A stretch of 64,000 bases of DNA from an uncultured Candidatus Saccharibacteria bacterium (GTDB taxonomy: Bacteria > Patescibacteriota > Minisyncoccia > Phycocordibacterales > Zambryskibacteraceae): assembly GCA_964349945.1 (NCBI GenBank), contig CAYGIH010000002.1:125492-189491 (forward strand), written 5' to 3'. Each line of letters starts with the position of its first letter. The first letter of the stretch is position 1. Below the pieces are notes generated by a model. That model saw nothing but the letters and a program-made list of their open reading frames with translations, had not been told where the DNA came from and made no database searches. Below, one piece after another: positions 18,333 through 49,419 of the stretch. The translations under genes were made by a program, and so were the position numbers.

Positions 18333-18402
18333 TAGTAAAATAAGTTTTCAACAAAAAAACGGCTTAACAAGGCTGTTTTTTGTTATATTTGAGGCTAAAT
18401 GC

Positions 18403-18431
18403 TTGACATTTAATACTGACTGTGCTATTAT
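18403..18431 (+). promoter_or_regulatory. Near-consensus sigma70 promoter TTGACA-N17-TATTAT driving high-GC cassette gene
   Basis: TTGACA at 18403-18408, 17-nt spacer, TATTAT at 18426-18431. GGAGG SD at 18475-18479. Confidence 0.6.
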
Positions 18432-18485
18432 ACACAAGTACAGATGTCCTTTCCCACTACAACGGCCTAGCGCCGGAGGTATCCC

Positions 18486-19106
18486 GTGAACCGGTTTGAG
18501 AAGCTCCTGAACGCCCTGTTGGCGAAGATCGAGTCCGTCCGCGCCCTGTGCGCTGACATCCCGACCGACGTGGCGACGAAGGTGAGCGAAGAGCTCGCCC
18601 ACGTCGTGAAGGTTCTGCGTGACCCGCAGGCCATCACGACCGGTCGCAACGTCGGCTACGTCGGCGCCCTCGCGGAGGAGGCTCTGAGGGATCTGCGCTC
18701 GAACGAGCGTCGGTTCCTCATCACCCTCGGCACGATCAACGGTCTGCGAGAGCGGATCGGTGCGCTTCACCCGCAGACGCCCATGAAGATGGGGGTCTCG
18801 GACGCCATCACGCTCTACGACATCTCGCGCCAGAATCATGACACGGGGACCGCTGTGCTCCGCACGGAGTACGACGGCATCCTGTTCCTCATGGAGGAGG
18901 CCGAGACCCAGTCCCGGCTTCTGCGCTCGCGCGAAGCGGACGAGCGGATTCGCGAGACCATCGCGAACGGCGTCGTCGGCGCGATCAAGCCGGCCAAGCG
19001 CGGTCGGGCTGCAGGCAAGAGACTTGCTGATGCTGAACGTCGTTCCCAGATGAAGGGCAAGACGAACGGCGGTGGCAAGAACAACCGCAAGCAGAAGACG
19101 GCGTAG
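18486..19106 (+). CDS. High-GC (about 65%) hypothetical protein with basic C-terminal tail; GTG start
   Basis: GGAGG, 6 nt, then GTG. Private promoter and terminator. Composition is foreign to the genome. The antisense ORF 18348-19274 is judged to be a GC artefact. Confidence 0.55.
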   Translation: MNRFEKLLNALLAKIESVRALCADIPTDVATKVSEELAHVVKVLRDPQAITTGRNVGYVGALAEEALRDLRSNERRFLITLGTINGLRERIGALHPQTPMKMGVSDAITLYDISRQNHDTGTAVLRTEYDGILFLMEEAETQSRLLRSREADERIRETIANGVVGAIKPAKRGRAAGKRLADAERRSQMKGKTNGGGKNNRKQKTA

Positions 19107-19107
19107 T

Positions 19108-19168
19108 CGGGGTTCGCCCCACGAAAAGTTCCCACGGATTCCCGTGAGCACTATTCGTGGGGCTTTTT
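19108..19168 (+). terminator. Compound hairpin terminator (GGGGTTCGCCCC ... CCCCACGAA/TTCGTGGGG + T-run)
   Basis: Nested GC hairpins ending in CTTTTTG. Confidence 0.55.
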
Positions 19169-19224
19169 GTTTTCCTAAAAATGTGTAATATAGCCAGAGG
19201 CCCCATAACCAGAGGAGTATGCGC

Positions 19225-19575
19225 ATGTATAATGGTCCGGATTCTGATGTGCAAGGAGTGCCAGTAGTTCCCACTGCATCAGGCCTGTCGAAGGTTCATC
19301 ACAGCGATCTTACGGGTCTTACCCAACCAACGATCAGAGAAGTGGATGCCATGGTGGCCCACTTCAAGGGATGGAAGATGCCATCCCTTGTGGTCGCTCT
19401 TGCTGAGACGGGTTTCGTACATCGTGCGGCATGGTCGCACGGGGAAACCAAGGTTACTCAGGATGAACTCGATCGCGCGAATCGCTGTCTCTCGAAGCAC
19501 ATCACTGGTCAAATCAGGATGAATCGGGAGTACATCTGGTTTGCCAAGACGGGCGGATCAAATCCGGTGAACTAA
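19225..19575 (+). CDS. Mid/high-GC hypothetical protein, second gene of the island
   Basis: GAGGAG SD 7 nt upstream of ATG 19225. Followed by terminator AGGCCCC-AAC-GGGGCCTTTTTT. Confidence 0.45.
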   Translation: MYNGPDSDVQGVPVVPTASGLSKVHHSDLTGLTQPTIREVDAMVAHFKGWKMPSLVVALAETGFVHRAAWSHGETKVTQDELDRANRCLSKHITGQIRMNREYIWFAKTGGSNPVN

Positions 19576-19578
19576 CCC

Positions 19579-19602
19579 AAGGCCCCAACGGGGCCTTTTT
19601 TC
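19579..19602 (+). terminator. Intrinsic terminator
   Basis: GGCCCC/GGGGCC stem plus T6. Confidence 0.65.
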
Positions 19603-23104: not shown

Positions 23105-23944
23105 ATGAAGAAATACAGACCAACATCTCCATCAAGACGACAAACTTCAAACGTTGAATTCAAAAAATTCACCACTACAAACGAACCTTTGAAGTCTTTA
23201 ACCAAGGGTTTTAGACGAGCCAATGGACGCAACAATACAGGTAGAATCACCACTCGACACAAAGGGGGAGGACACAAAAGACTTTTTAGAGAAATAGACT
23301 TTACATACAACAAACTCAATGTGCCTTTCACTATTAAAACTGTTGAATACGATCCAAATCGTTCTGGTTTCATTGGACTTGTGGCTTATAAGGATGGAGA
23401 GAGACGATATGCACTTCTACACAAAGGAGTTAAAATTGGGGAAACATTTGTAGCCGGAGAAAATGCTCCTTTGGTGCCTGGGAACAAACTACCTCTAAAG
23501 AATATCCCTGTTGGAACATTCGTATACAACGTAGAACTAAAGCCAAATGGTGGAGCTCGCATCGCTCGCTCTGGAGGAAACTATGTAGAAGTGAGTGCGA
23601 AGGATGGTGGTTATGTAGATGTGAAGATGCCTTCATCAGAAGTTCGAAAAGTTATTGAAACTGCTTATGCAACTATCGGTGAAGCTTCAAATGATGAGAA
23701 CCGTCTTACAAATCTAGGTAAGGCAGGGAGAAATAGATGGTTAGGAGTTCGTCCAACTGTCCGAGGTACTGCTCAAAACCCAGTAGACCACCCACATGGA
23801 GGAGGAGAAGGAAGACAAGGAAGAGGACGCAGACGAGCAATCTCTGTTTATGGGAAGCCAACAGGCAAGGGACAAAAATCTCGACGCTCAAAGAAATATT
23901 CAAACAAACATATTGTCAGAAGACGAAAAGTTGGCAAGAAATAA
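23105..23944 (+). CDS. rplB: Ribosomal protein L2
   Basis: Conserved L2 (GGGHK, HPHGGGEG). Confidence 0.95.
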   Translation: MKKYRPTSPSRRQTSNVEFKKFTTTNEPLKSLTKGFRRANGRNNTGRITTRHKGGGHKRLFREIDFTYNKLNVPFTIKTVEYDPNRSGFIGLVAYKDGERRYALLHKGVKIGETFVAGENAPLVPGNKLPLKNIPVGTFVYNVELKPNGGARIARSGGNYVEVSAKDGGYVDVKMPSSEVRKVIETAYATIGEASNDENRLTNLGKAGRNRWLGVRPTVRGTAQNPVDHPHGGGEGRQGRGRRRAISVYGKPTGKGQKSRRSKKYSNKHIVRRRKVGKK

Positions 23945-23949
23945 AATCA

Positions 23950-23974
23950 AAAATCCCCACTCGGGGATTTTTTG
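23950..23974 (+). terminator. Intrinsic terminator after rplB (AAATCCCC-ACTC-GGGGATTTTTT)
   Basis: Perfect 6-bp GC stem plus T-run. Unexpected here, because rpsS normally follows directly. Confidence 0.7.
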
Positions 23975-24025
23975 TAACACACTTCGGGGTTATACTTTCA
24001 ACAGACACTTAACCGAGGATTGATT

Positions 24026-24268
24026 ATGAGTGAAGCTCAAGAAAAAAATCCTTGGATTAGGTTTGTATATAGTCCATGCGATGATGATCATCGAGTAGTA
24101 GTTGATTTTGTGAACCAACATGAACTGCCGGTCATACTTGATTCAAATGAATGCGCTCCACATCCAGAACTTCGGGTGAATCATGGAGAGATTCTGACTG
24201 GCGCTGATAAAATCATAAACCACTTGAAGGCACAGTTTGCCCACCTCATCACCCCAATGCCTAGTTAG
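24026..24268 (+). CDS. Small thioredoxin-fold (GST-N/glutaredoxin-like) protein
   Basis: GAGGA SD 6 nt before ATG. FVYSPCDDDHRVVVDFVNQHELPVILD resembles the GST-N beta-alpha-beta core. Weak call. Confidence 0.35.
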   Translation: MSEAQEKNPWIRFVYSPCDDDHRVVVDFVNQHELPVILDSNECAPHPELRVNHGEILTGADKIINHLKAQFAHLITPMPS

Positions 24269-24400
24269 GCATTTTTTTGTTTATATTGACAAATATTATA
24301 CATATTGTAATGTTTCTTTGTTTCCGATAGGTGAAGAACACTTTACTCATGGAGCAGATCTCCTTGAGCCACAACGGCGGAACAGTTCTTTGGGGGTTCT

Positions 24401-24799
24401 ATGAGTGAAATTGCTGGATTCATCGGGTGGTGCATCATTGTCATGCTATTTGGTAGCGTTATTATCATGATCCTCGAGATGATCAAAAACTGGTTTACTC
24501 AGAACTCTCGGTTCATTGATGAGTTTGTTGATCAAGGAACGGTCAACTTCAAGATCAGGAATCTCGCTATCGAACTCAAGGATCTCTTTGATCAGCAGAT
24601 CGAAGAGCAAAAGAGGTTTTCTGGGGACTCTCTCCATCAGCGCGAGCACAACATCAATTCGTTTTCTGAGCTTGTTTCTGAAAAGAAGGGGAAGTTTTGG
24701 AAGGTGGTCAATCTGGCCAAGAAGGTCGGCTTCGACACTCCCAGCACCATCGAAGAAGCGCTCGTATTGCCGATTGTCTTTGAAGAAGACGACGATTGA
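24401..24799 (+). CDS. Hypothetical N-terminally membrane-anchored acidic protein
   Basis: TTGACA-type promoter at about 24287, long leader, GGGGG before ATG, one TM helix, terminator at about 24822-24850. Confidence 0.45.
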   Translation: MSEIAGFIGWCIIVMLFGSVIIMILEMIKNWFTQNSRFIDEFVDQGTVNFKIRNLAIELKDLFDQQIEEQKRFSGDSLHQREHNINSFSELVSEKKGKFWKVVNLAKKVGFDTPSTIEEALVLPIVFEEDDD

Positions 24800-24996
24800 T
24801 CTAGTAATCGTCATTATGTCTTTGGCCATCCGTAAGGGTGGTTTTTTCATTGACAAAAACCTAAAATCCTATAAAGTATCCGCATAAGGTCAAAGACAAG
24901 AGGCGAACAATAAGTCCTCTCGAGACTACTCTCTCTGCAATAGCGGACGTTGAGACCTTATATAGGTCGATTTTTTTAGCCAAAAAACAAAACCAA

Positions 24997-25485
24997 ATGG
25001 CAATATCAAGAACCAAAAAAGGAGAAATAATTGATAAGCTCCAAGGAGCGCTCAAGGGTGCCAAGTCTCTTGTTTTCGTGAACTTCCATGGTTTAAAAGT
25101 TTCTGATGCCACCGCGATGCGCCGAGCCCTCAAGGGCGAAGGTGTCTCATACGCAGTGACTAAGAAAAGTTTAACCAAAAGAGTTTTAGCAGATGAGAAG
25201 TTTGAAGGTACGCAACCAGAGCTCACAGGTGAACTGGCAATGGCTTGGTCAGAAGACCTCATTGCCCCAGCCCGTGGAGTTTACGGCTTCCAAAAAAAAT
25301 TCCCAGAAGGTATTCAAATCCTCGGTGGAGTTTTCGAAGGACGATACATGGATAAGAAGGAGATGGAAGGCATCGCCACCATCCCAACTACAGATGTACT
25401 CCGTGGAATGTTTGTGAACATCATCAATTCTCCAATACAGCGTTTCGCTATCGCGCTCAATGAGGTAGCAAAAACTAAGAACTAA
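24997..25485 (+). CDS. rplJ: Ribosomal protein L10
   Basis: Conserved L10 sequence. About 145-nt structured leader upstream. Confidence 0.9.
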   Translation: MAISRTKKGEIIDKLQGALKGAKSLVFVNFHGLKVSDATAMRRALKGEGVSYAVTKKSLTKRVLADEKFEGTQPELTGELAMAWSEDLIAPARGVYGFQKKFPEGIQILGGVFEGRYMDKKEMEGIATIPTTDVLRGMFVNIINSPIQRFAIALNEVAKTKN

Positions 25486-25498
25486 TTAATTATAAAAT

Positions 25499-25861
25499 AT
25501 GACACAAGAACAAATCATCGAAGCTGTAGAGAAGTTGAGTGTACTAGAACTCAACACTCTAGTGAAGGCTATTGAAGAAAAGTGGGGTGTTTCAGCTACA
25601 GCCGTAGCGGCCGCAGGACCTGCAGCAGCCGGTGAAGCAGTAGAAGCCAAGTCAACAGCAGATGTAGAACTTACAGACGCTGGTGCCAATAAGATTGCAG
25701 TTATCAAGGTAGTGAAGGAAGTGCTCGCCCTAGGCCTCAAAGAAGCCAAGGATCTCGTAGATGCAGCACCTTCAATGCTTAAAGCAGGAATGAAGAATGA
25801 TGAAGCCGCAGATCTCAAGAAAAAGATTGAGGAAGCAGGCGGAAAGGTTACTTTAAAGTAA
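25499..25861 (+). CDS. rplL: Ribosomal protein L7/L12
   Basis: Ala-rich hinge and conserved C-terminal domain ([18 protein letters not shown]). Confidence 0.92.
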
Positions 25862-25881
25862 TAAATCATTTGTTCCGATTC

Positions 25882-25906
25882 AAAAAACCGCTTAGGCGGT
25901 TTTTTG
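25882..25906 (+). terminator. Intrinsic terminator after rplL (AAAAAACCGCTTAGGCGGTTTTTTG)
   Basis: Near-identical to the fusA terminator. Confidence 0.7.
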
Positions 25907-25963
25907 TTGACACTGAAACTCACAAGAGTAATCTATCTATAGACGGTCCCCCAAGGAGGAACG

Positions 25964-26221
25964 GTGCGTGCCACCCTAATGGATGTAAGGATCTTGTGGC
26001 TCGTCTGGTTGTATGAGAACAGACGGCCTGCGCGGAGTAAGACGCGCAAGGATCTGAACGCGCGTTTCCTCGGAATGTTCAAGGAAATTGCGAAGATAAC
26101 CAGGAAGAAGATTGGCTTTCCTGGTCGACCAGACGACGAGGTGCCTCTGGACGAGAAGTCGGATGCCCTCTACTGTCGAATGGAAAAAGAGTGGGACAGA
26201 GTCATGTCCCGCAAGAGGTGA
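25964..26221 (+). CDS. High-GC small basic hypothetical protein (85 aa), GTG start
   Basis: TTGACA at 25907-25912. AAGGAGG SD at 25953-25959, then GTG. Terminator AAACCCTATCGCTTTGATAGGGTTTTT follows. Confidence 0.45.
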   Translation: MRATLMDVRILWLVWLYENRRPARSKTRKDLNARFLGMFKEIAKITRKKIGFPGRPDDEVPLDEKSDALYCRMEKEWDRVMSRKR

Positions 26222-26288
26222 AACCCTATCGCTTTGATAGGGTTTTTACTTACTGGCATTCCTTATAGATTGTGAGTAGAATGGCCGT

Positions 26289-26849
26289 ATGACAAAGTCA
26301 GTATCCAATATCTTCGGCGGTGAAGCCAAGGTGAAAATAATGCGTTTATTCATATTTAATCCAGGCACTATTTTCGAAGCTTCAGCTGTATCAGATAGAA
26401 CCCAAGAAAGACGTGCGGTAGTAGCCAGAGAAATTCGCAATTTAATGAAGGGAGGTTTACTCAGAAAAAAAGGTAAGGGTTATACATTAAATTATGATTA
26501 TCCTTTTGTTGAAGCCTTGAATAGTTTCCTCATAGATGCGAGTCCTATTTCAGAAAAGGAAATAATCAAAAAGGTTTCTCGTGCAGGAACGATGAAGCTC
26601 ATTTTAATTTCTGGGGTATTCCTTCATGATCCAGAAGCCAGAGTTGATATGCTCGTAGTGGGGGACCATCTAAAGAAAGGTGTTTTGGTTCAAGCTATTA
26701 GTTCTATTGAAGCCATGCTCGGCAGGGAAATTCGCTATGCATCGTTTGAAACGGCTGATTTTCAATATAGATTAGGTCTCTATGACAAGCTCGTTCGAGA
26801 TATCCTCGACTTCAACCACAAGAAAATCCTTAATAAATTAGGAGTTTAG
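26289..26849 (+). CDS. Hypothetical protein (possible winged-helix N-terminal domain)
   Basis: 186 aa at native GC. No confident family assignment. Confidence 0.4.
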   Translation: MTKSVSNIFGGEAKVKIMRLFIFNPGTIFEASAVSDRTQERRAVVAREIRNLMKGGLLRKKGKGYTLNYDYPFVEALNSFLIDASPISEKEIIKKVSRAGTMKLILISGVFLHDPEARVDMLVVGDHLKKGVLVQAISSIEAMLGREIRYASFETADFQYRLGLYDKLVRDILDFNHKKILNKLGV

Positions 26850-26981
26850 CTTTATTTATTATCCACAAACCCTATACAATCATTGTTTTTATGGTTTTTG
26901 GCGGTGTATAATAAAGCATACCCCTAAAAAGAGGTAACATTAATAATAAGTGCATTTGCACAGACCCTCAGTCAAGAACAT

Positions 26982-27671
26982 ATGTTGATTAATACATGGG
27001 GACAAGTTCTCACACTTTCATTCCAGAATCTTTGGATGGGAGTTGTAGCCTTTGTTCCACAGTTAGTTGTCGCAATTATTATCCTCATCCTCGGATGGCT
27101 CATCGGCGCATTATTTGGCCGAGCTGTCTGGCAGGTGTTCCGTTCTCTAAGAGTTGATGAAGCTCTAAGACGAGCAGGTTTTGAAACATTCCTTCGCCGA
27201 GGAGGACTAAACCTCGATTCTGGTGCTTTCATTGGCGGACTTGTTAAGTGGTTTGTGATCCTTGTTTTCCTTATTGGATCATTCAACGTTCTAGGTCTCA
27301 GCCAAGTTAACGCATTCATTAGTGATGTTGTTCTTCTTTACCTCCCTCGCGTAATTGTCGCTGCCCTCATCCTACTTGTAGGAGGAGTAGTTGGTGATGT
27401 TATCGATCGAGTAGTAGTCACAGCAGCTAAGACAGCTGAAATTCGTTCAGCACACTTCGCTGGTTCACTTTCAAAGTGGGCAGTTTGGGTATTTGCTATC
27501 CTTGTCGCGCTTAGTCAGCTCGGCATCGCGGCAGCCTTTAGTCAAACTCTCTTCACAGGTATTGTTATAGCTATCTCTCTTGCACTAGGCCTTTCATTTG
27601 GTCTTGGAGGTCAAGAAGCAGCGGCTCGATTTATCGAGAAGCTACGTGGAGAGATGAGTGGGAATAAGTAA
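26982..27671 (+). CDS. Conserved-TM-helix repeat membrane protein (MscS-related TM_helix family-like)
   Basis: Four similar amphipathic/TM repeats (LVVAIIILILGWLIGALFGRAV..., VIVAALILLVGGVVGDVIDRVV...). Confidence 0.5.
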   Translation: MLINTWGQVLTLSFQNLWMGVVAFVPQLVVAIIILILGWLIGALFGRAVWQVFRSLRVDEALRRAGFETFLRRGGLNLDSGAFIGGLVKWFVILVFLIGSFNVLGLSQVNAFISDVVLLYLPRVIVAALILLVGGVVGDVIDRVVVTAAKTAEIRSAHFAGSLSKWAVWVFAILVALSQLGIAAAFSQTLFTGIVIAISLALGLSFGLGGQEAAARFIEKLRGEMSGNK

Positions 27672-27752
27672 AAAGAAGTATTATAGCTAGATAATACTTC
27701 AACTTGCATAAAAGGGCCCTATTTAGGGCTCTTTTATGTATTATAAATGTCC

Positions 27753-27781
27753 TTGACTTTATACATCAAGTATGCTATTAT
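27753..27781 (+). promoter_or_regulatory. Consensus sigma70 promoter TTGACT-N17-TATTAT
   Basis: TTGACT at 27753-27758, 17-nt spacer, TATTAT at 27776-27781. Preceded by terminator AAAAGGGCCCTATTTAGGGCTCTTTT. Confidence 0.6.
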
Positions 27782-27835
27782 AGACAGGTACGCTCTTTAG
27801 TTATACTCCCTTTAACGTATTACCACGGAGTAGCC

Positions 27836-28408: not shown

Positions 28409-28435
28409 TTCGCACAAGGGACTGTTCTGGGTCCA

Positions 28436-28462
28436 AGGTCGTCTGAAAAGGCGACCTTTTTT
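28436..28462 (+). terminator. Intrinsic terminator (AGGTCGTC-TGAAAAG-GCGACCTTTTTT)
   Basis: Hairpin plus T6. Confidence 0.65.
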
Positions 28463-28473
28463 CTTATAATAGT

Positions 28474-39555: not shown

Positions 39556-39951
39556 ATGAAAAAATCACTCTTGAATACAAGTTTTTTAGTTTTAATTTGT
39601 ATTTTAATAATTCATCTTATAGGAATAAAATTTTATTTTTATTGGGATTCAAGGTGGTTTGATAATTTGGCTCATTTTACTGGAGGTTTGGGTGTCAGTC
39701 TGCTTTCGCTTTGGATTTTGTTTGTTTCAGGAGTGTTTGGTAAACATAAACCAAGTAAAAAACAAATTTTGTTTGCCAGTATTTTTTGTGGATTGATAAT
39801 AGGTATAGGTTGGGAAGTTTTTGAATTTATAAATGATATAGCTGGGCCGATAGAGAGTTATCAATTGGACACAGCTTGGGATTTGTTTATGGACCTAGTT
39901 GGGGCATCAGTTGCATATTTAATCGCCAGAGATGGAGAATACTATGAGTAA
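39556..39951 (+). CDS. Hypothetical membrane protein
   Basis: 3-4 TM helices. A TGGTATAAT extended -10 sits only about 6 nt before the ATG, so the mRNA is leaderless or has a short leader. Confidence 0.45.
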   Translation: MKKSLLNTSFLVLICILIIHLIGIKFYFYWDSRWFDNLAHFTGGLGVSLLSLWILFVSGVFGKHKPSKKQILFASIFCGLIIGIGWEVFEFINDIAGPIESYQLDTAWDLFMDLVGASVAYLIARDGEYYE

Positions 39952-41308
39952 ACCAACTCTTACTTGTTGGGGTGGAGTTGGTGCGGTCACTGGTGCTAAT
40001 TTTTTGTTTGAGACAGGCACTAAGAAAGTTTTAATTGATTGTGGTCTTCTCCAAGGTCTTCCTAGTGCAGAAAACATTAACGCAGAAAAATTTGATTATG
40101 AACCAACATCAATAGATTTTCTTTTTATTACCCATGCTCATATAGATCATATAGGCAAAGTTCCTAAATTAGTTAAGGATGGGTTCAAGGGTATTATTTA
40201 CTCTACAGGAGAGACAAGGGCCATCGCAGAATTAATGCTTGCAGACATGGCCAAAATAAATACATCTAATGCTCATGGGACAGGGTCAGAGCCACTATAC
40301 GGACATGATCATGTGGTCAAGGCCTTGAGTTTGTGGCAGACGATTAATTATCATGAACAAAAGGATTTTGGGGATTTTAGTCTTGAATTGTTTGATGCTG
40401 GACACATACTTGGCTCAGCCATGTATAAATTCACCTTTAAAAGCGGTAAAACTATGCTTTTCACTGGTGACTTGGGCAATTCGCCTTCTCCGCTCCTCAG
40501 GGATAATGAAAGGGTTTCTGGGCTCAGTTATCTCCTTATGGATTCGGTTTATGGAGACAGAAACCATGAAGATAAAACAGAAAGAGACAGAAAATTTAAA
40601 GAAATTATTGAGAGGACAGCCAAGGAGGGTAGAACACTTCTTGTCCCTGTTTTTTCTCTTGAACGAACACAAGTTTTGCTTTATGAATTAAATGAATTAT
40701 TTGAATCCAAACAAGTGACACAAATTCCTGTTTTCCTTGATTCACCTTTGGCTATTCATGTGACCGAGATTTATGAACGCATCACCAAAGAGTATAAAAA
40801 GACTGTGCAGGATGATATAAGGGGTGGGGATGATATCTTTGTTTTCCCTAAACTTCGTTCTATAACTGAATCACGCGAGTCTAGAGAAATAGTAAATATT
40901 AAAGGTCCAAAGATAATCATGGCTGGTTCAGGGATGTCTACGGCTGGGAGAATTGTGGGGCACGAAGAGATATACCTTCCAGATCCAAAAGCAACCATTC
41001 TCTTTGTTGGGTATCAAGCCCCAGGGACACTAGGTAGACAAATATCAGAAGGTGCAAAAAATGTAATGATAAAAGATAGGGGTGTCGAAGTGAGAGCAGA
41101 AGTGATACAAATCGATGGATTTTCTGCTCATGCGGATTCTGATGCTTTGGTAAATTTTGTCTCGAACACTGCCGAAACATTAAAAAATGTTTTTGTCACT
41201 ATGGGTGAACCAAAATCAGCTATGTTCCTTGCTCAAAGACTTAATGATGAGCTAAATGTGAAAGCTATCATGCCTGAGAGAGGGAAGAGATATGAATTAG
41301 ATTTATAA
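39932..41308 (+). CDS. MBL-fold beta-CASP RNA-metabolising hydrolase (RNase J / CPSF-like)
   Basis: HAHIDHIG motif, beta-CASP region, 458 aa. Confidence 0.75.
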   Translation: MENTMSKPTLTCWGGVGAVTGANFLFETGTKKVLIDCGLLQGLPSAENINAEKFDYEPTSIDFLFITHAHIDHIGKVPKLVKDGFKGIIYSTGETRAIAELMLADMAKINTSNAHGTGSEPLYGHDHVVKALSLWQTINYHEQKDFGDFSLELFDAGHILGSAMYKFTFKSGKTMLFTGDLGNSPSPLLRDNERVSGLSYLLMDSVYGDRNHEDKTERDRKFKEIIERTAKEGRTLLVPVFSLERTQVLLYELNELFESKQVTQIPVFLDSPLAIHVTEIYERITKEYKKTVQDDIRGGDDIFVFPKLRSITESRESREIVNIKGPKIIMAGSGMSTAGRIVGHEEIYLPDPKATILFVGYQAPGTLGRQISEGAKNVMIKDRGVEVRAEVIQIDGFSAHADSDALVNFVSNTAETLKNVFVTMGEPKSAMFLAQRLNDELNVKAIMPERGKRYELDL

Positions 41309-42825: not shown

Positions 42826-43020
42826 TTAGGCGGTTTTGTTGGGTCGACATTCTGGGCAACGTCCATCCACGAGGTACTGTACTCGTACTGCGAGGTGACA
42901 GTTGATGCAGTAAGCAGCCATCTTCAAGAGAATCAAATCAGATTCTCTGGTGGATGCAGATTCTTGGAGATAAGGACTTTTCCTCGCTGGTATCACTGAA
43001 GTGGTCACCTGTTTCTCCAT
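42826..43020 (-). CDS. Possible small zinc-ribbon protein
   Basis: CINCH...CPEC pair. No convincing SD or promoter, so this is a weak call. Confidence 0.25.
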   Translation of the reverse strand: MEKQVTTSVIPARKSPYLQESASTRESDLILLKMAAYCINCHLAVRVQYLVDGRCPECRPNKTA

Positions 43021-43128
43021 TTGAAGTGTCTGAAATAAATTTACTCCATATAGGATAAAAAATCATTTCAAATTGTGTATAACAAAAAAGCCCCGACAGA
43101 AGCCAAGGGCTAATCTGCGGGGCTGAGC

Positions 43129-43359
43129 TTAGAAAAGCGAAGTCAGAGGCAAGGTCAAGAAATATCCGGCCCACTTGAAGAGTACCCCAGTTATCCAGAG
43201 AATTACTCCGATCAGTGGGATGCTAATCGCGACGGTGGCTACCCGACCGGCGGGGCCGAGCGGATATCCGTCTGCAGTGATTGAGTCTCTGTTTACATAT
43301 GCCGTCAACATGGCGACAATGTACAGACACCACGCCAGTATTACGAGAAGGGTGTGCAA
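43129..43359 (-). CDS. Small 2-TM membrane protein (paralog of 43816-44061), TTG start
   Basis: Promoter TTGACA-N17-like at about 43390-43420 (minus). GAGGT-tccc-TTG. Leader and protein align with the 44061 paralog (…AM…SIT…P[IL]G…). Terminator repeat R1 at 43084-43124. Confidence 0.5.
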   Translation of the reverse strand: MHTLLVILAWCLYIVAMLTAYVNRDSITADGYPLGPAGRVATVAISIPLIGVILWITGVLFKWAGYFLTLPLTSLF

Positions 43360-43448
43360 GGGAACCTCGTTTGTGTGAGAGGACGAAGAGTATCTAACTA
43401 GTATTAGATACCTACTTAGACCATTTGTCAAGTAATAAAAAACCCGCA

Positions 43449-43697
43449 TTACTTGCGGGGTTGCTTGCTGACTGTGGTGACCTCAATACGAATTCGCGGT
43501 TCTTCTTCTTGCATTGTCCAAAGAAACGCCATGGCGAGACCAACTTTGCTACCCTTAACTACTAGCCAATCACCCTTGCGTTTGTAGAGCGGGTTAGGGA
43601 TACGTTCCATAATCCATGTGCCCGCAGACAACATGACTCGTTTGCGGTTGCTTCCATCGATGAGTTGAACAGTGATAGGGAAGGTGACTTTGTACAA
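43449..43697 (-). CDS. Small hypothetical protein (82 aa), TTG start
   Basis: GAGGT-gtcac-TTG. Own terminator CAACCCCGCAAGTAATGCGGGTTTTTT (minus) at about 43436-43462. Confidence 0.45.
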   Translation of the reverse strand: MYKVTFPITVQLIDGSNRKRVMLSAGTWIMERIPNPLYKRKGDWLVVKGSKVGLAMAFLWTMQEEEPRIRIEVTTVSKQPRK

Positions 43698-43815
43698 GTG
43701 ACACCTCGTCGAGCGGGTTGAACAGTCTTTTATTACCTTACGCTTAATATAAAAAATGTAAAACAGAAAAGCCCCGACAGAAGCCGAAGCAAATCTGTGG
43801 GGGCATGGAGAAGAA

Positions 43816-44061
43816 CTACTCCTTATTGATGCGCGTTAGGCGTGGGTCGTTCGCTCGAATGTTGAGCACCCAATCGTAGCTCAAGATGAAGATCATGCAG
43901 CCGGCGACCATGATGAGCAAGCTGATGATGGTTGCTCCGATGGGATCGGCGACATTCCCGGTGATGCTGTGACCCAAGCAATCCGCACCGAGTACCGCCA
44001 TGCACATGGCCGGAAAACCGACGAGGAAAAGCAGGAGCAGTGACTTCACAAACACGGACAT
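43816..44061 (-). CDS. Small 2-TM membrane protein (paralog of 43129-43359)
   Basis: Perfect minus-strand promoter TTGACA (44127-44132)-N17-TATAAT (44104-44109). GAGGT-cacg-ATG at 44061. Terminator repeat R2 at 43767-43803. Confidence 0.6.
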   Translation of the reverse strand: MSVFVKSLLLLFLVGFPAMCMAVLGADCLGHSITGNVADPIGATIISLLIMVAGCMIFILSYDWVLNIRANDPRLTRINKE

Positions 44062-44179
44062 CGTGACCTCGGCGTGAGAGAACAGGAAGATACTCTACCT
44101 TATATTATATACCTATTTATCCTATTTGTCAAGTAGAAAATATGCCTAATATACTAGGTTTATTTGCTACAATAAATCA

Positions 44180-44511: not shown

Positions 44512-44905
44512 TGGTGGAGATGCCGGGAATCGAACCCGGGTGCAAAGAGAGATTCAAGTGAAGTCTACGCGAGGTAGGATGCTTCATTTAGTTCGAACAG
44601 AAAGATACAAAACAAACGAAAGCTCTTTCAATTCTATTCCCTTAATCTGAGAGTCAGTCGAGAAACACAAACTCCGAGTCTCTAGTTATTACGCACGCTT
44701 ATGAGTCAGAGGCACCCATCATAAGGCACGGTCGCACGCGAACTGTTAAGCTCGAGCGTAAGCGAACTGGAAATCATTCACACCGAAGTATGGTGATATC
44801 CTTGCAACAGTTTTGTTTGCAATTGTTTTTGAAGCGGATTAAAGAGTCACTTCGGCTCTCTCGCGCATCACTCGAATGAATCTCCTTGTCTAGGCCGATC
44901 ATCCC
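44512..44905 (-). ncRNA. ssrA: tmRNA (SsrA)
   Basis: 3' end ...CCGGGTTCGATTCCCGGCATCTCCACCA (T-arm plus acceptor plus CCA). 5' GGGGATG pairs with the 3' acceptor and gives a G3:U70 wobble. Internal tag ORF ends ...FAYARA-TAA. Adjacent to smpB. Confidence 0.8.
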
Positions 44906-45004
44906 CCTAAAACATTTTTGTATACAAAAATGTTCGGGCGATCGATTTGTAAACAAATCGATTTAGCCATAAAGCATCCTTGTATAAATGTTCGGGCGAA
45001 CAAA

Positions 45005-45274
45005 TTAATGGCTCGCCCTACTTTGTTTGTATTTATCTAGTATTTTCTTCTTTTCTCTCGCGCCCCACAAACTTTTTAGAAATCTTTCTCTATTGAACGC
45101 TTCAGTCTTATCTTCAAATTTTTCACTATGGATAAGACTGAGCGGTCTGCGAGATTTAGTTGCTTGCACGGCTCCATTGTTGTGTCGCACTAATCTTTTC
45201 TCAAGATTAGTGGTGCAACCAACATAAAGTTTGTGGTCTTTAGAACTTAGAAGGATATAAACAAAGTAGGGCAT
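45005..45274 (-). CDS. GIY-YIG nuclease superfamily protein (YhbQ-like)
   Basis: FVYILLSSKDHKLYVGCTTNLEKRLVRHN GIY-YIG motif. 89 aa. Confidence 0.75.
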   Translation of the reverse strand: MPYFVYILLSSKDHKLYVGCTTNLEKRLVRHNNGAVQATKSRRPLSLIHSEKFEDKTEAFNRERFLKSLWGAREKKKILDKYKQSRASH

Positions 45275-45284: not shown

Positions 45285-45722
45285 TTATTTCAATTTACGA
45301 TTCAGGTCTCTCTCGACATCGCGTTTCTTGATGGATTCGCGTTTGTCGAATTTTTTCTTGCCTCGCGCAATGGCGAGGTCAAGCTTTAGAAACCTACCTT
45401 TATTATACACCGAAAGAGGCACGATTGTCAAGCCTTTAGTCCCTTCAGCTTTTTCTAATTCACCAAGCTCTGCCTTGGTTAGAAGTATTTTCCTTGCCCT
45501 AGTTGATTCATAGTCCGCAGGGGCGTTTTTTGGCTGATAGGCTGGGATGTCAGCATTGAGGAGGAAGGCTTCTTTACCTCGGATGGTCACATAAGCCCCA
45601 GAGAGGGAAATGTGCCCAGCCCGAACAGACTTCACTTCTTGGCCAGTTAGCTCGAGCCCAGCCGTGAACTTCTCAAGGATTTCATAATCAAATGTCACTT
45701 TTCTGTTCTGTGCGAGTGCCAT
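45285..45722 (-). CDS. smpB: SsrA-binding protein SmpB
   Basis: Conserved SmpB core (GLELTGQEVKS, SGAYV). Confidence 0.9.
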   Translation of the reverse strand: MALAQNRKVTFDYEILEKFTAGLELTGQEVKSVRAGHISLSGAYVTIRGKEAFLLNADIPAYQPKNAPADYESTRARKILLTKAELGELEKAEGTKGLTIVPLSVYNKGRFLKLDLAIARGKKKFDKRESIKKRDVERDLNRKLK

Positions 45723-45767
45723 GGGCTAATCATAGCAAAGTATCTGTTTTTAGGTATAATATGCCCC

Positions 45768-47717
45768 ATGACAACACCTAAAATACCCAAGAATAAAGAG
45801 AAAAAGAGCGCAGGGAAGTCGTTTAAGCTTGTGATAAAAAAGGGTGCAGGAAGTGCGACCAAGGGGCCAATTAATCAGGGCATTATGGCTATCCTGATTT
45901 TTCTTATACTCATCACCATATATTCGATGGTGAGTGATGTTTCGAAGAAAAAGGAAGTCATCTCTATCTCTGAACTTTCTCAAAACATCCAAAAATCTCT
46001 AGTCACTTCTATTGCTGTGAAGGGAGACAACCTCGATATTGTTTATAAGGATGGGGCAGAGAAAACTTCCAAGAAAGAAGAGGGAACCCCCATCACCACT
46101 ACTTTCAAAAATTATGATGTCACACCAGAAGCCCTTTCTGCAGTGAAGATAGATGTACAGAATAATCAAGGGCTTGGATATTGGGTGCTCAACCTCCTTC
46201 CAATTCTCCTCCCAATCGGCTTCATACTTTTCTTCATTTGGTTTTTATCTAGACAGGTGAAAGGTGCGGGTATGCAAGCGATGTCCTTTGGACAATCAAA
46301 GGCGCGCATGACTCTCCCAGATGATAAGAAAAATCTAGTTACCTTCAAGGACGTGGCTGGGGCGAAGGAAGCCAAGGAAGAACTCACAGAAATAGTAGAC
46401 TTCCTAAAAAATCCTAAGAAGTTTCTGGATATTGGTGCCCGTATCCCAAAAGGTATCCTGCTCATGGGTGCACCGGGGACAGGTAAGACTTTGCTCGCTC
46501 GAGCGGTGGCTGGGGAAGCAGGTGTGGCTTTCTTCTCCATCTCCGGTTCTGAATTCGTAGAGATGTTCGTGGGTGTTGGAGCATCACGAGTGCGTGATTT
46601 GTTTGATATGGCCAAGAAGTCGAGTCCTGCGATAATCTTCGTCGATGAGATAGACGCAGTTGGAAGAGTACGTGGAGCAGGAATGGGTGGAGGCAATGAT
46701 GAACGAGAGCAAACTTTGAACCAAATCCTTGTGGAGATGGATGGCTTCGAACCAAATGAGAAGGTGATAGTCATGGCGGCCACTAACCGTCCAGATGTTC
46801 TTGACCCAGCTTTGCTTCGTCCTGGACGCTTTGATAGACGAGTGACTTTGGATCTTCCGGACAGAGGTGATCGTGAAGAGATTTTGAAAATCCATGCACG
46901 ACAGAAGCCTTTTGCAGAAGATGTTCATCTCCCTCTTATTGCTGAACGAACACCTGGATTTTCTGGTGCAGATTTGTATTCACTTATGAATGAAGCGGCT
47001 ATCCTCGCAGCCAGAGAGAATAGAACCAAAGTCAGTCAGTTTGATTTAATTCGCTCCATAGAGAAGGTGATGCTTGGTCCAGAACGAAGGTCACATATCC
47101 TTTCTAAGAAAGAAAAGGAACTCACTGCTTACCATGAAGCAGGGCACGCAATTTTGGCCTCGGTTCTTCCTTATGCTGACCCAGTGCACAAGATTTCTAT
47201 AATTGCCCGCGGTCGAGCAGCCGGATATGTCCTCAAACTTCCACTTGAAGATACCAAACTCCAATCCAAGAAAGAATTTATAGATGACATCACCGTGGCC
47301 CTCGGAGGATATGTGGTGGAGAAAATGATTTATAAAGATTTGACCACTGGTCCATCAAACGATCTGCAAGTTTCTACTGCTCTTGCTCGAGATATGGTGA
47401 CCAAATATGGGATGAGTGAGAAACTTGGACCAATAGCTCTCGAAGGTGCGGGAGGACGAGTGCTCTTTGGTTCTGGAGTAGAAAACAAAGAATATTCTGA
47501 GAGAGTCAGTGCAGAAATAGATGCAGAAGTGTCTAAGATTATGAACGAAGCGATGAAGAAAGCCGAAGAAATCATCAAACAACATGAGAATTTGCTTGAG
47601 GTCATAGCCAAAAGATTAGTTGTGGTAGAGACAATAGAACAAAAGGAATTTGAAGAACTACTCATAGCCAACGGAGTCACTCCAAAGAAAAAGAAAGACA
47701 TCGAACATCAAGCTTAG
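45768..47717 (+). CDS. ftsH: ATP-dependent zinc metalloprotease FtsH
   Basis: AAA Walker A GPPGTGKT, SRH, HEAGH zinc motif, N-terminal TM pair. Confidence 0.95.
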
Positions 47718-48009
47718 TATAATTATCTGGTGTTAAGGAAAACTATAATCATCGGTGTTGCGGTTTATGCGGTCTCTATGTTTCTTGGATTTTTTGTCTA
47801 TAGAAATGTTTATTTGGCCCAGTCCTTGGAAGGGACACAAGATTATCTGGCTTCAGTGTTTTTGGCCTTGAGAAATTTATTTTTTTAAATAACAAAAAAC
47901 CATTTTTCTTTGCACGATAGTTTTCTACTGAAAACTTCTCTGCTCAAGCCAAGCTTTCAGCAAGGCACGAAAAATGGTTTTTTTGTATTACTTCTTTATG
48001 TCGTCCATA

Positions 48010-48213
48010 TTACATCTTTGCCTCACAAGCCTTACAACAATTCTTGTGATTAAATACTTCGTACAATGCAGAAATGCCCACTAAGACGTAAACAATCCTA
48101 GCTACTGTGGTGCCTACATACGTGGCAAGATCCCATCCACCTACGAGAGCTACAAGCAACCAATTCAAACCTCCGATAACCAACAAAACAAATGCAATTT
48201 TATGAAGCTTCAT
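48010..48213 (-). CDS. DUF378-family small membrane protein
   Basis: KIAFVLLVIGGLNW...IVYVLVGISALY matches the DUF378 pattern. Confidence 0.6.
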   Translation of the reverse strand: MKLHKIAFVLLVIGGLNWLLVALVGGWDLATYVGTTVARIVYVLVGISALYEVFNHKNCCKACEAKM

Positions 48214-48343
48214 ATTTTAATTAACAATTAAAACAATTATTTATAAACCTTGTTAATTATAGCATCCCCTAGACTTTGGAAATTTTTTTTCCACAACCTA
48301 TTTATAAGAAAAAATGCCGAGCAACTACGCTCGGCATCTAGTG

Positions 48344-49066
48344 TCATCCCCAACCACGGTGTCGTTCGATGACTCGGTCCACATACTCTACGACAAAAAT
48401 GAACAAGTCGTACAGAAAGTGAACCAAGATTGCCGCCGGCAACCCGTATTTGAACATGAGGTAAAAGAAAAACATGCCACCGAACCAGGAATTTATCATG
48501 CCGATGATACCTTGGTACGCATGACCATTCCTGAAGTCTCCATTCACGCTGATAACTGCAGCACCCACAGCCCACCCGAAGCCATTCATGAGGATTGGCT
48601 TCAGATAGCCTAGAGTAAAGAAGTTGGCAACTGGGATGAAGAAGTGTGTGTAGAACCATTCGGCGATTCCAAAGCCGGCCCAGCCGAAGAATAGCCAGTT
48701 AACGATTTTCAGAGATACCATAGCTCCGAAGAAAAGAATCCAACGGAAGCAGATTTCCTCCATGACACCGGCCTTGATGCTGACGAGGAGACCATTGAGA
48801 AGGTGATCCTCAGCATAACGGTTTTCCTCACGGCTGTTCCTTGTGAAGACTGAAACGAGCGTGGTGATGCCCGTGCCCCACAAGAGCAGTATCCATGAGT
48901 GCTTGACCGCTTCAATCAGAGAGCCACCAATCTTCCAGAAATGGAAGAAATCAAATGGGATAGTCTGTGGGCGGATTGCCTTAACGATGGTGATGAACAC
49001 CAACGTCGATATGGCAATAGAAATGTAACTCCGCTTCTTTTCTTCGGCGGTTATTCTTCGTGACAC
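48344..49066 (-). CDS. CPBP-family intramembrane glutamic endopeptidase (CAAX protease/Abi domain), high GC, GTG start
   Basis: Motifs EExxxR (EEICFR), FxxxH (FRNGH), HxxxD (HFLYD), multi-TM. Minus-strand promoter TTGACT (49155-49160)-N17-TAATAT (49132-49137). GGAGG-6nt-GTG. Terminator GCCGAGC-GTAGTT-GCTCGGCATTTTTT (minus) at 48310-48340. Confidence 0.7.
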   Translation of the reverse strand: MSRRITAEEKKRSYISIAISTLVFITIVKAIRPQTIPFDFFHFWKIGGSLIEAVKHSWILLLWGTGITTLVSVFTRNSREENRYAEDHLLNGLLVSIKAGVMEEICFRWILFFGAMVSLKIVNWLFFGWAGFGIAEWFYTHFFIPVANFFTLGYLKPILMNGFGWAVGAAVISVNGDFRNGHAYQGIIGMINSWFGGMFFFYLMFKYGLPAAILVHFLYDLFIFVVEYVDRVIERHRGWG

Positions 49067-49419
49067 ACATCCTCCGTGGAAATAAGTCAGGGAACTGGTG
49101 AATCAGTGAGATTCCAGCGAGTCTAATGTGAATATTAGCACATAATATGTAAAAAGTCAAGATAAATCCACTTGTCGTCACATGCTTTTAACGTGTCGTC
49201 ACAAGTATTTTTCTGCTGAAAAATCTCGCGACCCCGACTCAGCCCGTCGGCTTCTGTCTCGGACAAGTAAAAAACCGTGTCCCACAAGCTTTTTTACTTG
49301 TCCGCCCTCTTGGAATCTTCACACCTAGGAAACCCACGGTTTTCCCAATCCTTCCTTCACGGGAGACCAGATGTTCTCCCGACCCCTCTCCGTTCGAATC
49401 CAAGAGGATTCACTTCGTG

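Follow-up and report, generated by a model that had tools for sequence, protein, structure and literature searches.

GC-rich, Shine–Dalgarno-led single-gene cassettes at the operon junctions of an AT-rich Paceibacteria/Parcubacteria chromosome segment

Introduction

A phage moron is transcribed independently of its surroundings, from a sigma-70 promoter and up to an intrinsic terminator of its own (Juhala/Hendrix; reviewed in PMC3594210). Here we analyze a set of small genes with a comparable organization in a 64,000-nucleotide stretch of DNA (hereafter, the window, to which all coordinates refer unless another locus is named; contig CAYGIH010000002.1, positions 125,492 to 189,491 of the forward strand, GenBank assembly GCA_964349945.1) from an uncultured bacterium deposited as Candidatus Saccharibacteria. 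An earlier examination of the letters alone (the sequence-only reading) had pointed to a scattered family of small GC-rich open reading frames (ORFs), each in its own transcription unit, in a GC-poor genome whose native genes almost never have a Shine–Dalgarno (SD) sequence, and had proposed that this set, denoted here cassettes C1 to C12, came from one donor, one mobile element family or deliberate engineering. On balance, we favor a different explanation, namely that the cassettes are a native class of leadered, SD-dependent genes together with species-specific additions in lineage-wide insertion hot spots.

In architecture, the cassettes are closest to phage morons: they are insulated units between genes that are adjacent in related genomes, with small products, mostly of unknown function. 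Unlike morons, they reside in a bacterial chromosome, with fusA, tuf, ribosomal protein genes, infC and smpB as neighbors, and no phage relative was found for them in the searches described below. Recent acquisition does not hold for C1, C2, C4 and an additional unit, o82, which occupy the same slots in relatives, or for C5, which is conserved elsewhere, and absence from related loci is limited to C3, C6 to C12 and a second additional unit, o132. The cassettes thus fail the definition of a moron with respect to phage residence and, for at least five units, recent acquisition.

Leaderless and SD-led translation reportedly coexist in Mycobacterium and Actinobacteria and in Deinococcus. The window resembles these bacteria in having many SD-less genes with a -10 box next to the ATG, a leadered, SD-led minority and unstructured SD-less starts; it differs in that the minority with a strong SD amounts to only about 4% of the ORFs (across 114 loci of the lineage), exceeds the genome in GC content at third codon positions (GC3) by up to 0.6 and is organized in insulated monocistronic units. 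We know of no comparable GC dichotomy in Mycobacterium, Actinobacteria or Deinococcus, and a search of the full-text literature on SD or leaderless translation in the Candidate Phyla Radiation (CPR), Patescibacteria and Parcubacteria found no description of such a pattern.

Other known systems are less similar. Genomic islets and ORFans at tRNA and operon-junction hot spots share with the cassettes the atypical composition, the variable content at fixed junctions and, in the case of one unit, the location beside a tRNA gene with a duplicated 3' end. However, acquired ORFans are usually AT-richer than the host, whereas the cassettes are GC-richer, several of them occur at the same position in relatives and mobility genes were not recognized. 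Integron cassettes are likewise small single-gene modules that each end in an inverted repeat, but they are mostly promoterless, whereas the units described here have a promoter each, are not arrayed, have no recognizable integrase among the flanking ORFs (Pfam-annotated and extra ORFs) and carry 3' inverted repeats that resemble ordinary GC-stem/T-run terminators; they do not qualify as integron cassettes. The TTA/bldA-dependent genes of Streptomyces, a regulon based on codon composition, provide an analogy only: here, too, a small gene set has a codon composition that runs against the genome bias, but in the opposite direction, with GC-ending codons in a genome that is AT-rich, and over entire ORFs rather than at a single codon; no dedicated tRNA or regulator was identified.

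Composition and expression signals of the cassettes

The window is a segment of an AT-rich Paceibacteria/Parcubacteria (CPR) chromosome. It encompasses type IV pilus genes, tpiA/pgk, rpsL-rpsG-fusA, tuf, the ribosomal protein genes of the S10/spc/alpha operons, secY-adk-map, infC-rpmI-rplT, smpB, the transfer-messenger RNA (tmRNA) gene and a recG-like helicase gene, and its GC content outside the flagged spots is about 0.32–0.45. The comparison involved 71 native ORFs and the 12 ORFs for which the sequence-only reading, while speaking of at least 13, had listed coordinate pairs; two further units were added, 24026–24268 (o82), which is not GC-rich, and 24401–24799 (o132).

The claim that these genes form a distinct set by composition and signal grammar is borne out. 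The GC3 of the native ORFs is 0.326±0.058 (maximum, 0.47) and their GC content is 0.394±0.037 (maximum, 0.463), compared to a GC3 of 0.47–0.85 in the listed cassette ORFs (z = 2.5–9.0; Mann–Whitney p = 1e-8). Of the 14 units, 13 differ in composition from the adjacent genes (GC3 z 2.5–9), the exception being o82 (z = 0.3). The whole-ORF GC content had been put at about 50–66%; it is indeed raised relative to the native genes, but the actual range is 0.46–0.65, and C5, C6, C8, C10 and C12, at 46–48%, lie at or above the native maximum. A fine-scale GC profile contains sharp islands at 18.5–19.1 kb and 27.9–28.4 kb (GC 0.61–0.68) and milder elevations elsewhere. Codon usage in C1 and C4 is as in 65%-GC bacteria, with 3–4% A in the third position, 100% AAG, dominance of CTC/CTG and CGC, and GC3 of 0.81–0.85. 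The GC3 values are strongly heterogeneous across the cassettes (chi-square 139, p = 3e-23), which argues against a single donor.

The strength of SD sequences was measured as the predicted pairing energy with an assumed anti-SD, with a cut-off of -6 kcal/mol; the 3' end of 16S rRNA was looked for in the related loci and none was present. Pairing at or beyond the cut-off was detected for 11 of the 12 cassettes compared to 6 of the 71 native genes (p = 3e-6), in agreement with the view of the native genes as SD-less. An SD had been attributed to each cassette; the one that lacks it is 42826–43020 (C8), which the sequence-only reading had itself marked as questionable and for which a good -35 box is also missing. 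Non-ATG starts, noted previously in five or six cassettes, were confirmed in six (GTG in C1, C3, C5 and C12; TTG in C9 and C10), whereas 69 of the 71 native genes start with ATG. The start regions of the cassettes (-20 to +20) are considerably more structured than those of the native genes, with a median minimum free energy of -7.05 versus -1.4 kcal/mol (p = 3e-5).

Most of the units consist of a TTGACA-N17-TAnnnT promoter, often TGn-extended, a leader of 25–60 nt, a strong SD and a private terminator. In 13 of the 14, a single ORF is enclosed between its own promoter and its own intrinsic terminator, C8 being the one without a convincing promoter, and every SD-led unit ends in the private GC hairpin and T-run terminator that had been described. 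The promoters noticed originally at 18403, 27753, 32030, 32735, 33402(-), 44132(-) and 49160(-) were recovered, and others were found at 25907 and 43431(-). In C1, C4, C12 and the homologous cassettes of relatives, the promoter has the common form CTTGAC-N15-TGCTAnnAT. Between 17.5 and 34 kb, there are 45 promoter-like sites compared to 24.6±4.7 in shuffled sequences and 32 terminator-like sites compared to 14.7±4.3. All units are located at operon junctions of the ribosomal protein and translation region, spread over 31 kb among essential operons.

This grammar is not private to the cassettes. The native operons that start with tuf (19628), rplJ (24850) and rpsS (28474) are leadered and follow the same -35/-10 grammar; because TTGACA-N17 promoters are thus common to the cassettes and to native leadered operons, the cassettes can be said to use the host's own strong leadered promoter architecture. 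About 23 other native genes have a different arrangement, in which the end of a TATAAT-like -10 box, frequently with TG or G in front, lies 7–9 nt before the ATG and no -35 box is recognizable (start codons at 5001, 8179, 9845, 12727(-), 12748, 26289, 37271, 38666, 39556, 41678(-), 42583, 44180, 45722(-), 45768, 53952, 55108(-), 55150, 56337, 59636 and 62876, among others). To the extent that transcription starts can be predicted from such motifs, this arrangement indicates that leaderless mRNAs are pervasive in this CPR genome. The internal genes of native operons have no SD and start in A/U-rich, essentially unstructured sequence.

Conservation of the cassettes in related genomes

The nearest genomes are Paceibacteria/Parcubacteria metagenome-assembled genomes, with identity of the L5 protein not exceeding 81%. 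Homologs of C1 and C2 are present between fusA and tuf in locus L090, where elongation factors EF-G and EF-Tu are, respectively, 93% and 94% identical to those of the window, and the same pair is found directly downstream of fusA in L093 (EF-G 97% identical), a short contig that ends inside the C2 homolog. The C1 proteins are 59% and 55% identical to that of the window, and the C2 proteins 62% (L090) and 33% (L093). In both loci, these homologs have a raised GC content. In L090, GC3 is 0.61 for the C1 homolog and 0.56 for the C2 homolog compared to 0.27 in the flanks, and the promoter, leader, GTG start and terminator of C1 are recognizably kept. The DNA identity of the C1 promoter and leader is 70–75% compared to 55–73% in 60-nt windows of the ORF. 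The homolog of C5 in L181, from another Parcubacteria genome (70% identity), has a GTG start, an SD and a GC3 of 0.54, against 0.24–0.42 in the AT-rich surrounding genes, although it is located elsewhere in the genome rather than in the same slot; the C5 family includes 45 homologs, of which this one was examined at the DNA level. A homolog of o82 (61% identity) occupies the corresponding position in L006, the closest genome in the GTDB set.

The most extensive record is that of C4. Between the mechanosensitive (MS) channel gene and rpsS, homologs with 47–54% identity are found in L006, L086/L087 and L089. A search of 5.8 billion proteins gave two close relatives (P0013 and P0014) and tblastn of the related loci a third, the L006 gene; no others were detected. 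Each of the three is preceded by a GGAGG SD, and their GC3 is 0.58–0.72 versus 0.41–0.55 for the MS-channel and rpsS genes on either side. When 1.84 billion representative proteins were searched with a profile, 173 clusters were obtained, 79 of these below E = 1e-10, none of which contains a Pfam domain; all named sources are Paceibacterota or Parcubacteria. In the nine genes of the family that were analyzed as DNA, the same promoter type is kept, an SD is present in eight, and GC3 is 0.58–0.92, invariably above the 0.25–0.55 of the neighbors. These include four distant genes that are always convergent with truD (tRNA pseudouridine synthase D): L175 (~7001–9425; GC3 0.92 versus 0.29–0.42 in the neighbors), L177 (~7001–9184; 0.63 versus 0.27–0.39), L179 (~6001–8313; 0.83 versus 0.25–0.37) and L180 (~1707–4008; 0.67 versus 0.28–0.39). 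In all four, the promoter is of the form TTGAC(A/T)-N15-TGCTAnnAT, the leader is long and the unit ends in a hairpin terminator; three have a GGAG-type SD, and L180 has GAAGGA only. In L175 and L177, the gene lies about 7 kb from dnaA. The adjacency to truD could have a functional reason, or the slot near the origin could simply be stable. The ninth member, on an 825-bp contig, has a GC3 of 0.75. The promoter type is thus kept across deep divergence (33–37% protein identity).

The leaders of the C4 family also contain long perfect hairpins of unrelated sequence, about 30 bp in L175 (6800–7003) and about 20 bp in L177 (6850–7003). In three members, an upstream anti-SD pairs with the SD, with compensatory differences: TACTCC/GGAGTA in the window (27782–27835), CCTCC/GGAGG in L006 (6209–6266) and ACUCC/GGAGU in L175. 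This potential pairing may represent a family-specific translational control element. As a class-wide mode of control, sequestration of the SD by an upstream CU-rich anti-SD was rejected, given that 22 leaders from the window and homologs were no less accessible than shuffled sequences (mean z = +0.36, not significant).

The presence of homologs in sister genomes, which the sequence-only reading had itself named as evidence against a foreign or engineered origin, implies that such an origin fails for the respective units. The comparison with sister genomes divides the set into five units with homologs (C1, C2, C4, C5 and o82) and nine for which none was found.

Lineage-wide coupling and insertion hot spots

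The association between SD and GC extends beyond the window. Across the 114 loci, the GC3 of SD-positive ORFs is raised with respect to that of their locus (p = 4e-7). In the 113 loci other than the window, GGAG or GAGG is present upstream of 30% of the ORFs that exceed the median GC3 of their locus by more than 0.15 compared to 5.8% of the others (odds ratio 6.8, p = 4e-10), whereas the control motif CTCC/CCTC, of the same composition, is not enriched upstream of GC3-high ORFs (p = 0.32).

The junctions that carry the cassettes are insertion hot spots across the lineage. The gap between the L5 and S14 genes exceeds 300 nt in 46 of 67 loci; in L104, other SD-led, GC3-richer ORFs occupy the recG..o67 and tmRNA..infC slots. 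The junctions of L006 that correspond to cassette-bearing ones in the window contain AT-rich toxin–antitoxin genes (2691–3241 and 11154–11651), namely a HicA toxin gene (PF07927, 6e-12) and a YafQ-like toxin gene (2.5e-4), each with an upstream partner.

The junction downstream of fusA is variable in a further respect. An AT-rich ORF of 129 amino acids (aa; 17943–18332), with a TATAAT box about 30 nt upstream (region 17870–18370), is an insertion relative to L090, where about 150 nt separate fusA from the C1 homolog, and L093 has a different insert at this position; this junction therefore also takes AT-rich, SD-less cargo.

Individual cassettes

The promoter coordinates given here, like those of the SD and terminators, are predictions. 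Eight units are on the plus strand. The C1 unit (18403–19173) consists of a TTGACA-N17-TATTAT promoter with TG (18403–18431), a leader of about 49 nt, the SD GGAGGT (18475–18480), an ORF with a GTG start (18486–19106; GC 0.65, GC3 0.85) for a helical 206-aa protein with a basic C-terminal tail, and a terminator at 19117–19173. It is followed by the C2 unit (19182–19602), in which the extended -10 box TGTGTAATAT (19182–19191) and the SD GAGGAG (19212–19217) precede a 116-aa ORF (19225–19575; GC3 0.55) and a terminator at 19579–19602. The two additional units are adjacent. In o82 (23972–24279), a weak promoter, TTGTAA..TATACT, the SD GAGGA (24015–24019) and a terminator at 24256–24279 accompany an 80-aa ORF (24026–24268; GC3 0.35); in o132 (24286–24848), a TTGACA..TAATGT promoter (24286–24313) and a leader of about 85 nt precede an ORF for a 132-aa protein with one N-terminal transmembrane (TM) helix (24401–24799; GC3 0.60), with a terminator at 24824–24848. 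The C3 unit (25907–26248) combines a TTGACA-N16-TAATCT promoter (25907–25934), the SD GGAGGA (25955–25960), an 85-aa ORF with a GTG start (25964–26221; GC3 0.67) and a hairpin with T-run at 26222–26248, which was identified by inspection of the sequence itself. In the C4 unit (27753–28463), a TTGACT-N17-TATTAT promoter with TG (27753–27781), a 49-nt leader and the SD GGAGTA (27827–27832) are followed by an ORF for an alpha/beta protein of 190 aa (27836–28408; GC 0.64, GC3 0.81) and a terminator at 28435–28463, after which comes the native rpsS promoter at 28474. The C5 unit (32030–32733), with a TTGACA-N17-TATTTT promoter (32030–32058), the SD GGAGGG (32081–32086) and a terminator at 32709–32733, contains an ORF with a GTG start for a 206-aa multi-TM protein (32090–32710; GC3 0.55), and the C6 unit (32735–33121), with a TTGACT-N17-TATATT promoter (32735–32763), the SD GGAGGA (32795–32800) and a terminator at 33096–33121, contains one for an acidic 97-aa protein (32804–33097; GC3 0.49).

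The remaining cassettes are on the minus strand. The terminator of the C7 unit (33126–33402) at 33152–33126 stands back to back with that of C6; its promoter, TTGTCA-N17-TATATT (33402–33374), and SD, GGAGAC (33343–33338), serve an ORF for an acidic 63-aa protein (33334–33143; GC 0.52). C8, the atypical case, encodes a Cys-rich protein of 64 aa (CxxC...CxxC; 42826–43020; GC 0.48). The C9 unit (43084–43431; TTGACA-N17-TCTAAT, 43431–43403; SD GAGGTT; terminator 43123–43084) contains a TTG-initiated 76-aa ORF (43359–43129; GC3 0.61), the C10 unit (43437–43760; weak promoter; SD GAGGTG, 43707–43702; terminator 43459–43437) a TTG-initiated ORF of 82 aa (43697–43449; GC3 0.53), and the C11 unit (43766–44132), with a perfect TTGACA-N17-TATAAT promoter (44132–44104), the SD GAGGTC (44070–44065) and a terminator at 43803–43766, an 81-aa ORF (44061–43816; GC3 0.77). 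The promoters and leaders of C9 and C11 are 75% identical over 67 nt (43373–43439 versus 44074–44140) and their terminators are nearly identical (43084–43123 versus 43766–43803), whereas the ORFs have no similarity detectable by BLASTP; judging from this pattern, C9 and C11 look like tandemly duplicated cassettes whose coding parts might have diverged or been swapped.

The C12 unit (48309–49160) comprises a TTGACT-N17-TAATAT promoter with TG (49160–49132), a leader of about 60 nt, the SD GGAGGA (49075–49070), a 240-aa multi-TM ORF with a GTG start (49066–48344; GC3 0.61) and a terminator at 48339–48309. It lies directly downstream of a tRNA-Ile gene and a duplicated tRNA 3' end. The 16-nt 3' end of tRNA-Ile(TAT) (49419–49493, minus strand), TTCCAAGAGGGCGGAC (49419–49434), recurs 119 nt downstream (49300–49315); the two copies enclose an inverted copy of the T-arm and are followed by a perfect hairpin terminator of 14 bp. 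At up to three mismatches, two or more matches to this 16-mer occurred in 7 of 100 shuffled sequences, and the two copies do not bracket C12, nor was an integrase recognized. The duplication just upstream of the C12 promoter looks like a possible scar of site-specific integration or excision.

Products and database searches

As had been anticipated, the products are mostly unrecognizable, C5 and C12 being the only exceptions. C5 is a putative distant PnuC/NMN-transporter-like membrane protein: it scores 25.2 bits against PF04973 (gathering cut-off, 27.3), weak matches to this family at E < 1e-3 were obtained for 13 of 34 C5-family members, and no PDB sequence matched. C12 is a putative CPBP/Rce1-like membrane protease; although its score against PF02517 (17.4 bits, E = 0.0055) is below the cut-off of 22.4 and neither NCBIfam nor PDB sequences matched, the EExxxR, FxxxH and HxxxD motifs are present in the translation as EEICFR, FRNGH and HFLYD. 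C9 and C11 are small, largely hydrophobic proteins, probably with about two TM segments. The structure models of C1 (all-helical with a basic tail, pLDDT 65) and C4 (alpha/beta, pLDDT 67) have no significant structural neighbor.

Searches for phage relatives gave no support for a phage origin, which was accordingly rejected: the PHROGs search of the cassette proteins produced nothing below E = 0.03, C1 and C4 had no tblastn match among the 50,697 phage records of INPHARED, IMG/VR scans yielded no relative, and Foldseek comparison with viral structures (BFVD) reached TM-scores of at most 0.30. No phage, integrase or transposase gene was recognized among the flanking ORFs examined (Pfam-annotated ORFs and the extra ORFs scanned). 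A defense or toxin function was rejected as well, the PADLOC search having produced two weak matches only (C7, E = 0.029; o132 to PDC-M09A, 5e-4, 17.6 bits) and the NCBIfam search nothing significant. The suggestion that the cassettes are accessory, defense, toxin or immunity cargo is thus unsupported by PADLOC, PHROGs and NCBIfam with regard to specific functions; accessory status is still plausible for the nine units without homologs.

Origin of the cassettes

Our preferred explanation, a native leadered, SD-dependent gene class with species-specific additions, entails two expression regimes in one genome. Under the first, that of the native bulk, genes at the start of operons would be leaderless, with a -10 box and usually no -35 box, and internal genes would be initiated at A/U-rich, SD-less starts. 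Under the second regime, that of the cassettes, a GC-enriched ORF starting with ATG, GTG or TTG would stand alone in an insulated monocistronic unit, preceded by a full -35/-10 promoter, a leader and a strong SD and followed by a terminator of its own. C1, C2, C4, C5 and o82 would represent lineage-specific families, the other cassettes would be species-specific occupants of hot spots, and the uniform grammar would be the host's own grammar for leadered, SD-dependent genes. The private promoter and terminator would allow a unit to reside amid essential operons while leaving these undisturbed. A 5' AUG is a requirement of leaderless initiation. SD-less genes, according to published work, depend on the local absence of mRNA structure (PMC3121790; PMC5397173). 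If SD-independent and leaderless initiation indeed needs an unstructured start and an AUG, this would account for the restriction of GC-rich start regions and GTG/TTG codons to the SD-led genes, with the leader and the SD permitting a structured start and a non-ATG codon. Because orthologs at family-level divergence are GC-rich next to AT-rich neighbors, we favor a force specific to the gene class over recent import. Candidates for this force are selection that acts on the composition of codons or mRNA and a GC-biased conversion that accompanies frequent exchange of alleles; in our ranking, transfer from multiple donors comes second, and cassette swapping with biased conversion third.

Several observations weigh against this preferred explanation. 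The GC3 values of the C1 orthologs are unequal (0.85, 0.61 and 0.56), so that neither a constant selective optimum nor simple descent fits, and the codon set of C1 and C4 is what a recent import would be expected to look like. GC-rich Paceibacteria (genome GC 0.50–0.56) are equally SD-poor (Spearman rho 0.13, not significant), and therefore a GC-rich gene can do without an SD if its start region stays open; for the same reason, borrowing of SD and GC together from GC-richer Paceibacteria was ruled out. No homolog of C3, C6 to C12 or o132 was detected in about 170 related loci, of which the closest relatives, L090 and L093, cover the fusA–tuf slot only, and it is this absence that makes accessory status plausible for these nine units. 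Furthermore, the promoter, SD and terminator assignments are predictions from consensus, and the C4 family was assessed at the DNA level in nine genes.

Horizontal gene transfer from several GC-rich, SD-using donors, in which the ORF, SD and non-ATG start would come from the donor, a host-type promoter and terminator would be recruited later, and C1, C2, C4 and C5 would be older acquisitions that have not yet ameliorated, appears unlikely. It would explain the actinobacteria-like codon usage of C1 and C4 and the nine units without homologs in related loci; with GC-rich ORFs coupled to SD lineage-wide and GC-rich Paceibacteria nonetheless SD-poor, both traits could be marks of a donor; C12 lies beside tRNA-Ile and the duplicated tRNA 3' end; and the slots are insertion hot spots. 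However, no homolog of C1 or C4 was found outside Paceibacterota/Parcubacteria among the 5.8 billion and 1.84 billion proteins searched, so that repeated import has no visible donor, synteny is kept in two different slots, and the TTGAC(A/T)-N15-TGCTAnnAT promoter persists at 33–37% protein identity. Neutral amelioration over such a distance should erase a GC3 excess of 0.3–0.6; the retention of the excess in C4 and C1 at 33–55% protein identity therefore makes a single old transfer a poor fit. Origin from one common donor conflicts with both the GC3 heterogeneity and the conservation of C1, C2, C4, C5 and o82 in relatives. Swapping of cassettes within the lineage, whereby the promoter/leader and the terminator would serve as recombination arms during natural transformation and GC-biased gene conversion would raise both GC3 and divergence, is in our estimate less probable still. 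It draws on the contrast between C1 (59% identity) and EF-G (93%), the better conservation of the C1 promoter and leader than of the ORF, the wide variation of GC3 among orthologs, the shared signals and dissimilar ORFs of C9 and C11, and the type IV pilus genes of the window, which could serve DNA uptake. But EF-G and EF-Tu are unusually conserved proteins, so that the difference in identity need not mean replacement; the known effects of GC-biased gene conversion on GC3 in bacteria amount to a few percent rather than 30–60 points; and polymorphism, sought among the strains to read the direction of mutation, was absent, all five independent contigs of the population being identical.

That the cassettes are phage morons, a prophage remnant or the cargo of one mobile element family is very unlikely. 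An own promoter and terminator, deviating GC content and insertion between genes that are adjacent elsewhere are indeed moron-like (PMC3594210), and so might be the tRNA 3'-end duplication beside C12. Against this stand the negative outcome of the PHROGs, phage tblastn, IMG/VR and viral fold searches, the lack of a recognizable phage, integrase or transposase gene in the flanking ORFs examined, the scatter of the units over 31 kb among essential operons and, for a single mobile family, the five units conserved in relatives. As for deliberate engineering or a chimera of assembly or binning, which the textbook-consensus signals and sharp GC boundaries might bring to mind, the probability is negligible. 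A 196,114-bp contig with the exact cassette proteins is represented in NCBI, ENA and Logan, and three other assemblies (ERR3094292, ERR3094302 and ERZ27247817) contain five independent contigs that are 100% identical to the window, which is therefore a real chromosome segment and not a chimera, construct or assembly artifact; moreover, unrelated studies have produced at least eight further environmental genomes or contigs that contain diverged homologs of the same architecture, which refutes engineering and chimerism.

Other features of the window

Short-read assemblies of the same population (Logan contigs) end at 19921 (L004), 25729 (L001) and 42710 (L002), and the break at about 42.71 kb, found in both runs, is directly ahead of the C8–C11 cluster. 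Strain variation or shifts in coverage could cause such breaks at cassette clusters. At the opposite ends of the window, two paralogous type IV pilus/secretion ATPases (699–761 versus 58866–58928) are encoded along with two pilC-like genes; hence two sets of pilus or competence-like genes are present in the region, a feature that bears on DNA uptake by this lineage.

The S10 operon is split at 23105–28881, with rplJ-rplL and the genes for a conserved 186-aa protein and a small MS-channel-like membrane protein (PF05552) located between rplB and rpsS. This arrangement is common to about 12 related loci, including L006, L007, L008, L013 and L086, and rpsS has its own conserved promoter, TTGACAATA..TTTCTATACTATAT. 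A perfect (12/12) TTGACA-N18-TATAAT promoter motif is present on the minus strand at 45402–45431, within the smpB coding region (45285–45722, minus strand) and upstream of a small GIY-YIG/T5orf172-like gene (45005–45274) and the tmRNA gene (44512–44906). The scattered positions of GIY-YIG homologs elsewhere in relatives suggest that this gene is mobile and homing-endonuclease-like. Finally, the 458-aa metallo-beta-lactamase/beta-CASP/RMMBL protein encoded at 39932–41308 also matches the Anti-Pycsar Apyc1 Pfam family; given that it is kept in place in relatives, a housekeeping RNase J-type nuclease is likelier than an anti-defense gene.

Implications

The coexistence of leaderless and SD-led genes is already known; what has not, to our knowledge, been described is a link between this coexistence and a large, conserved GC excess of insulated single-gene units. 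It is common practice to take an atypical GC content as evidence of recent horizontal transfer, an inference that is broken by phylum-restricted families that, at family-level divergence, are far GC-richer than their genomes in conserved positions with conserved promoters. The persistence of the excess calls for a gene-specific force on base composition. From a practical standpoint, gene callers that rely on ribosome-binding sites or ATG starts will mis-start both gene classes, and the cassettes offer strong native promoter, ribosome-binding site and terminator parts, as predicted here, for future CPR genetics.

Because most genes of this CPR lineage start in a leaderless or SD-less manner and a small, recognizable set is SD-led, the lineage is also a natural system for asking why the anti-SD is retained. 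We further put forward, tentatively, a stronger possibility, that the C4, C1/C2 and C5 families belong to a conserved Paceibacteria gene class that is actively kept GC-rich (GC3 up to 0.92 in genomes at about 0.3) as a separate expression channel in which composition itself is selected. This channel would consist of a full-consensus extended -10 promoter, a long leader and a strong SD, in contrast to the leaderless or SD-less remainder of the genome. If this were the case, composition could determine mRNA stability, gate expression through codons or tRNAs, or shield these genes from default initiation, amounting to an orthogonal expression regime within one cell.

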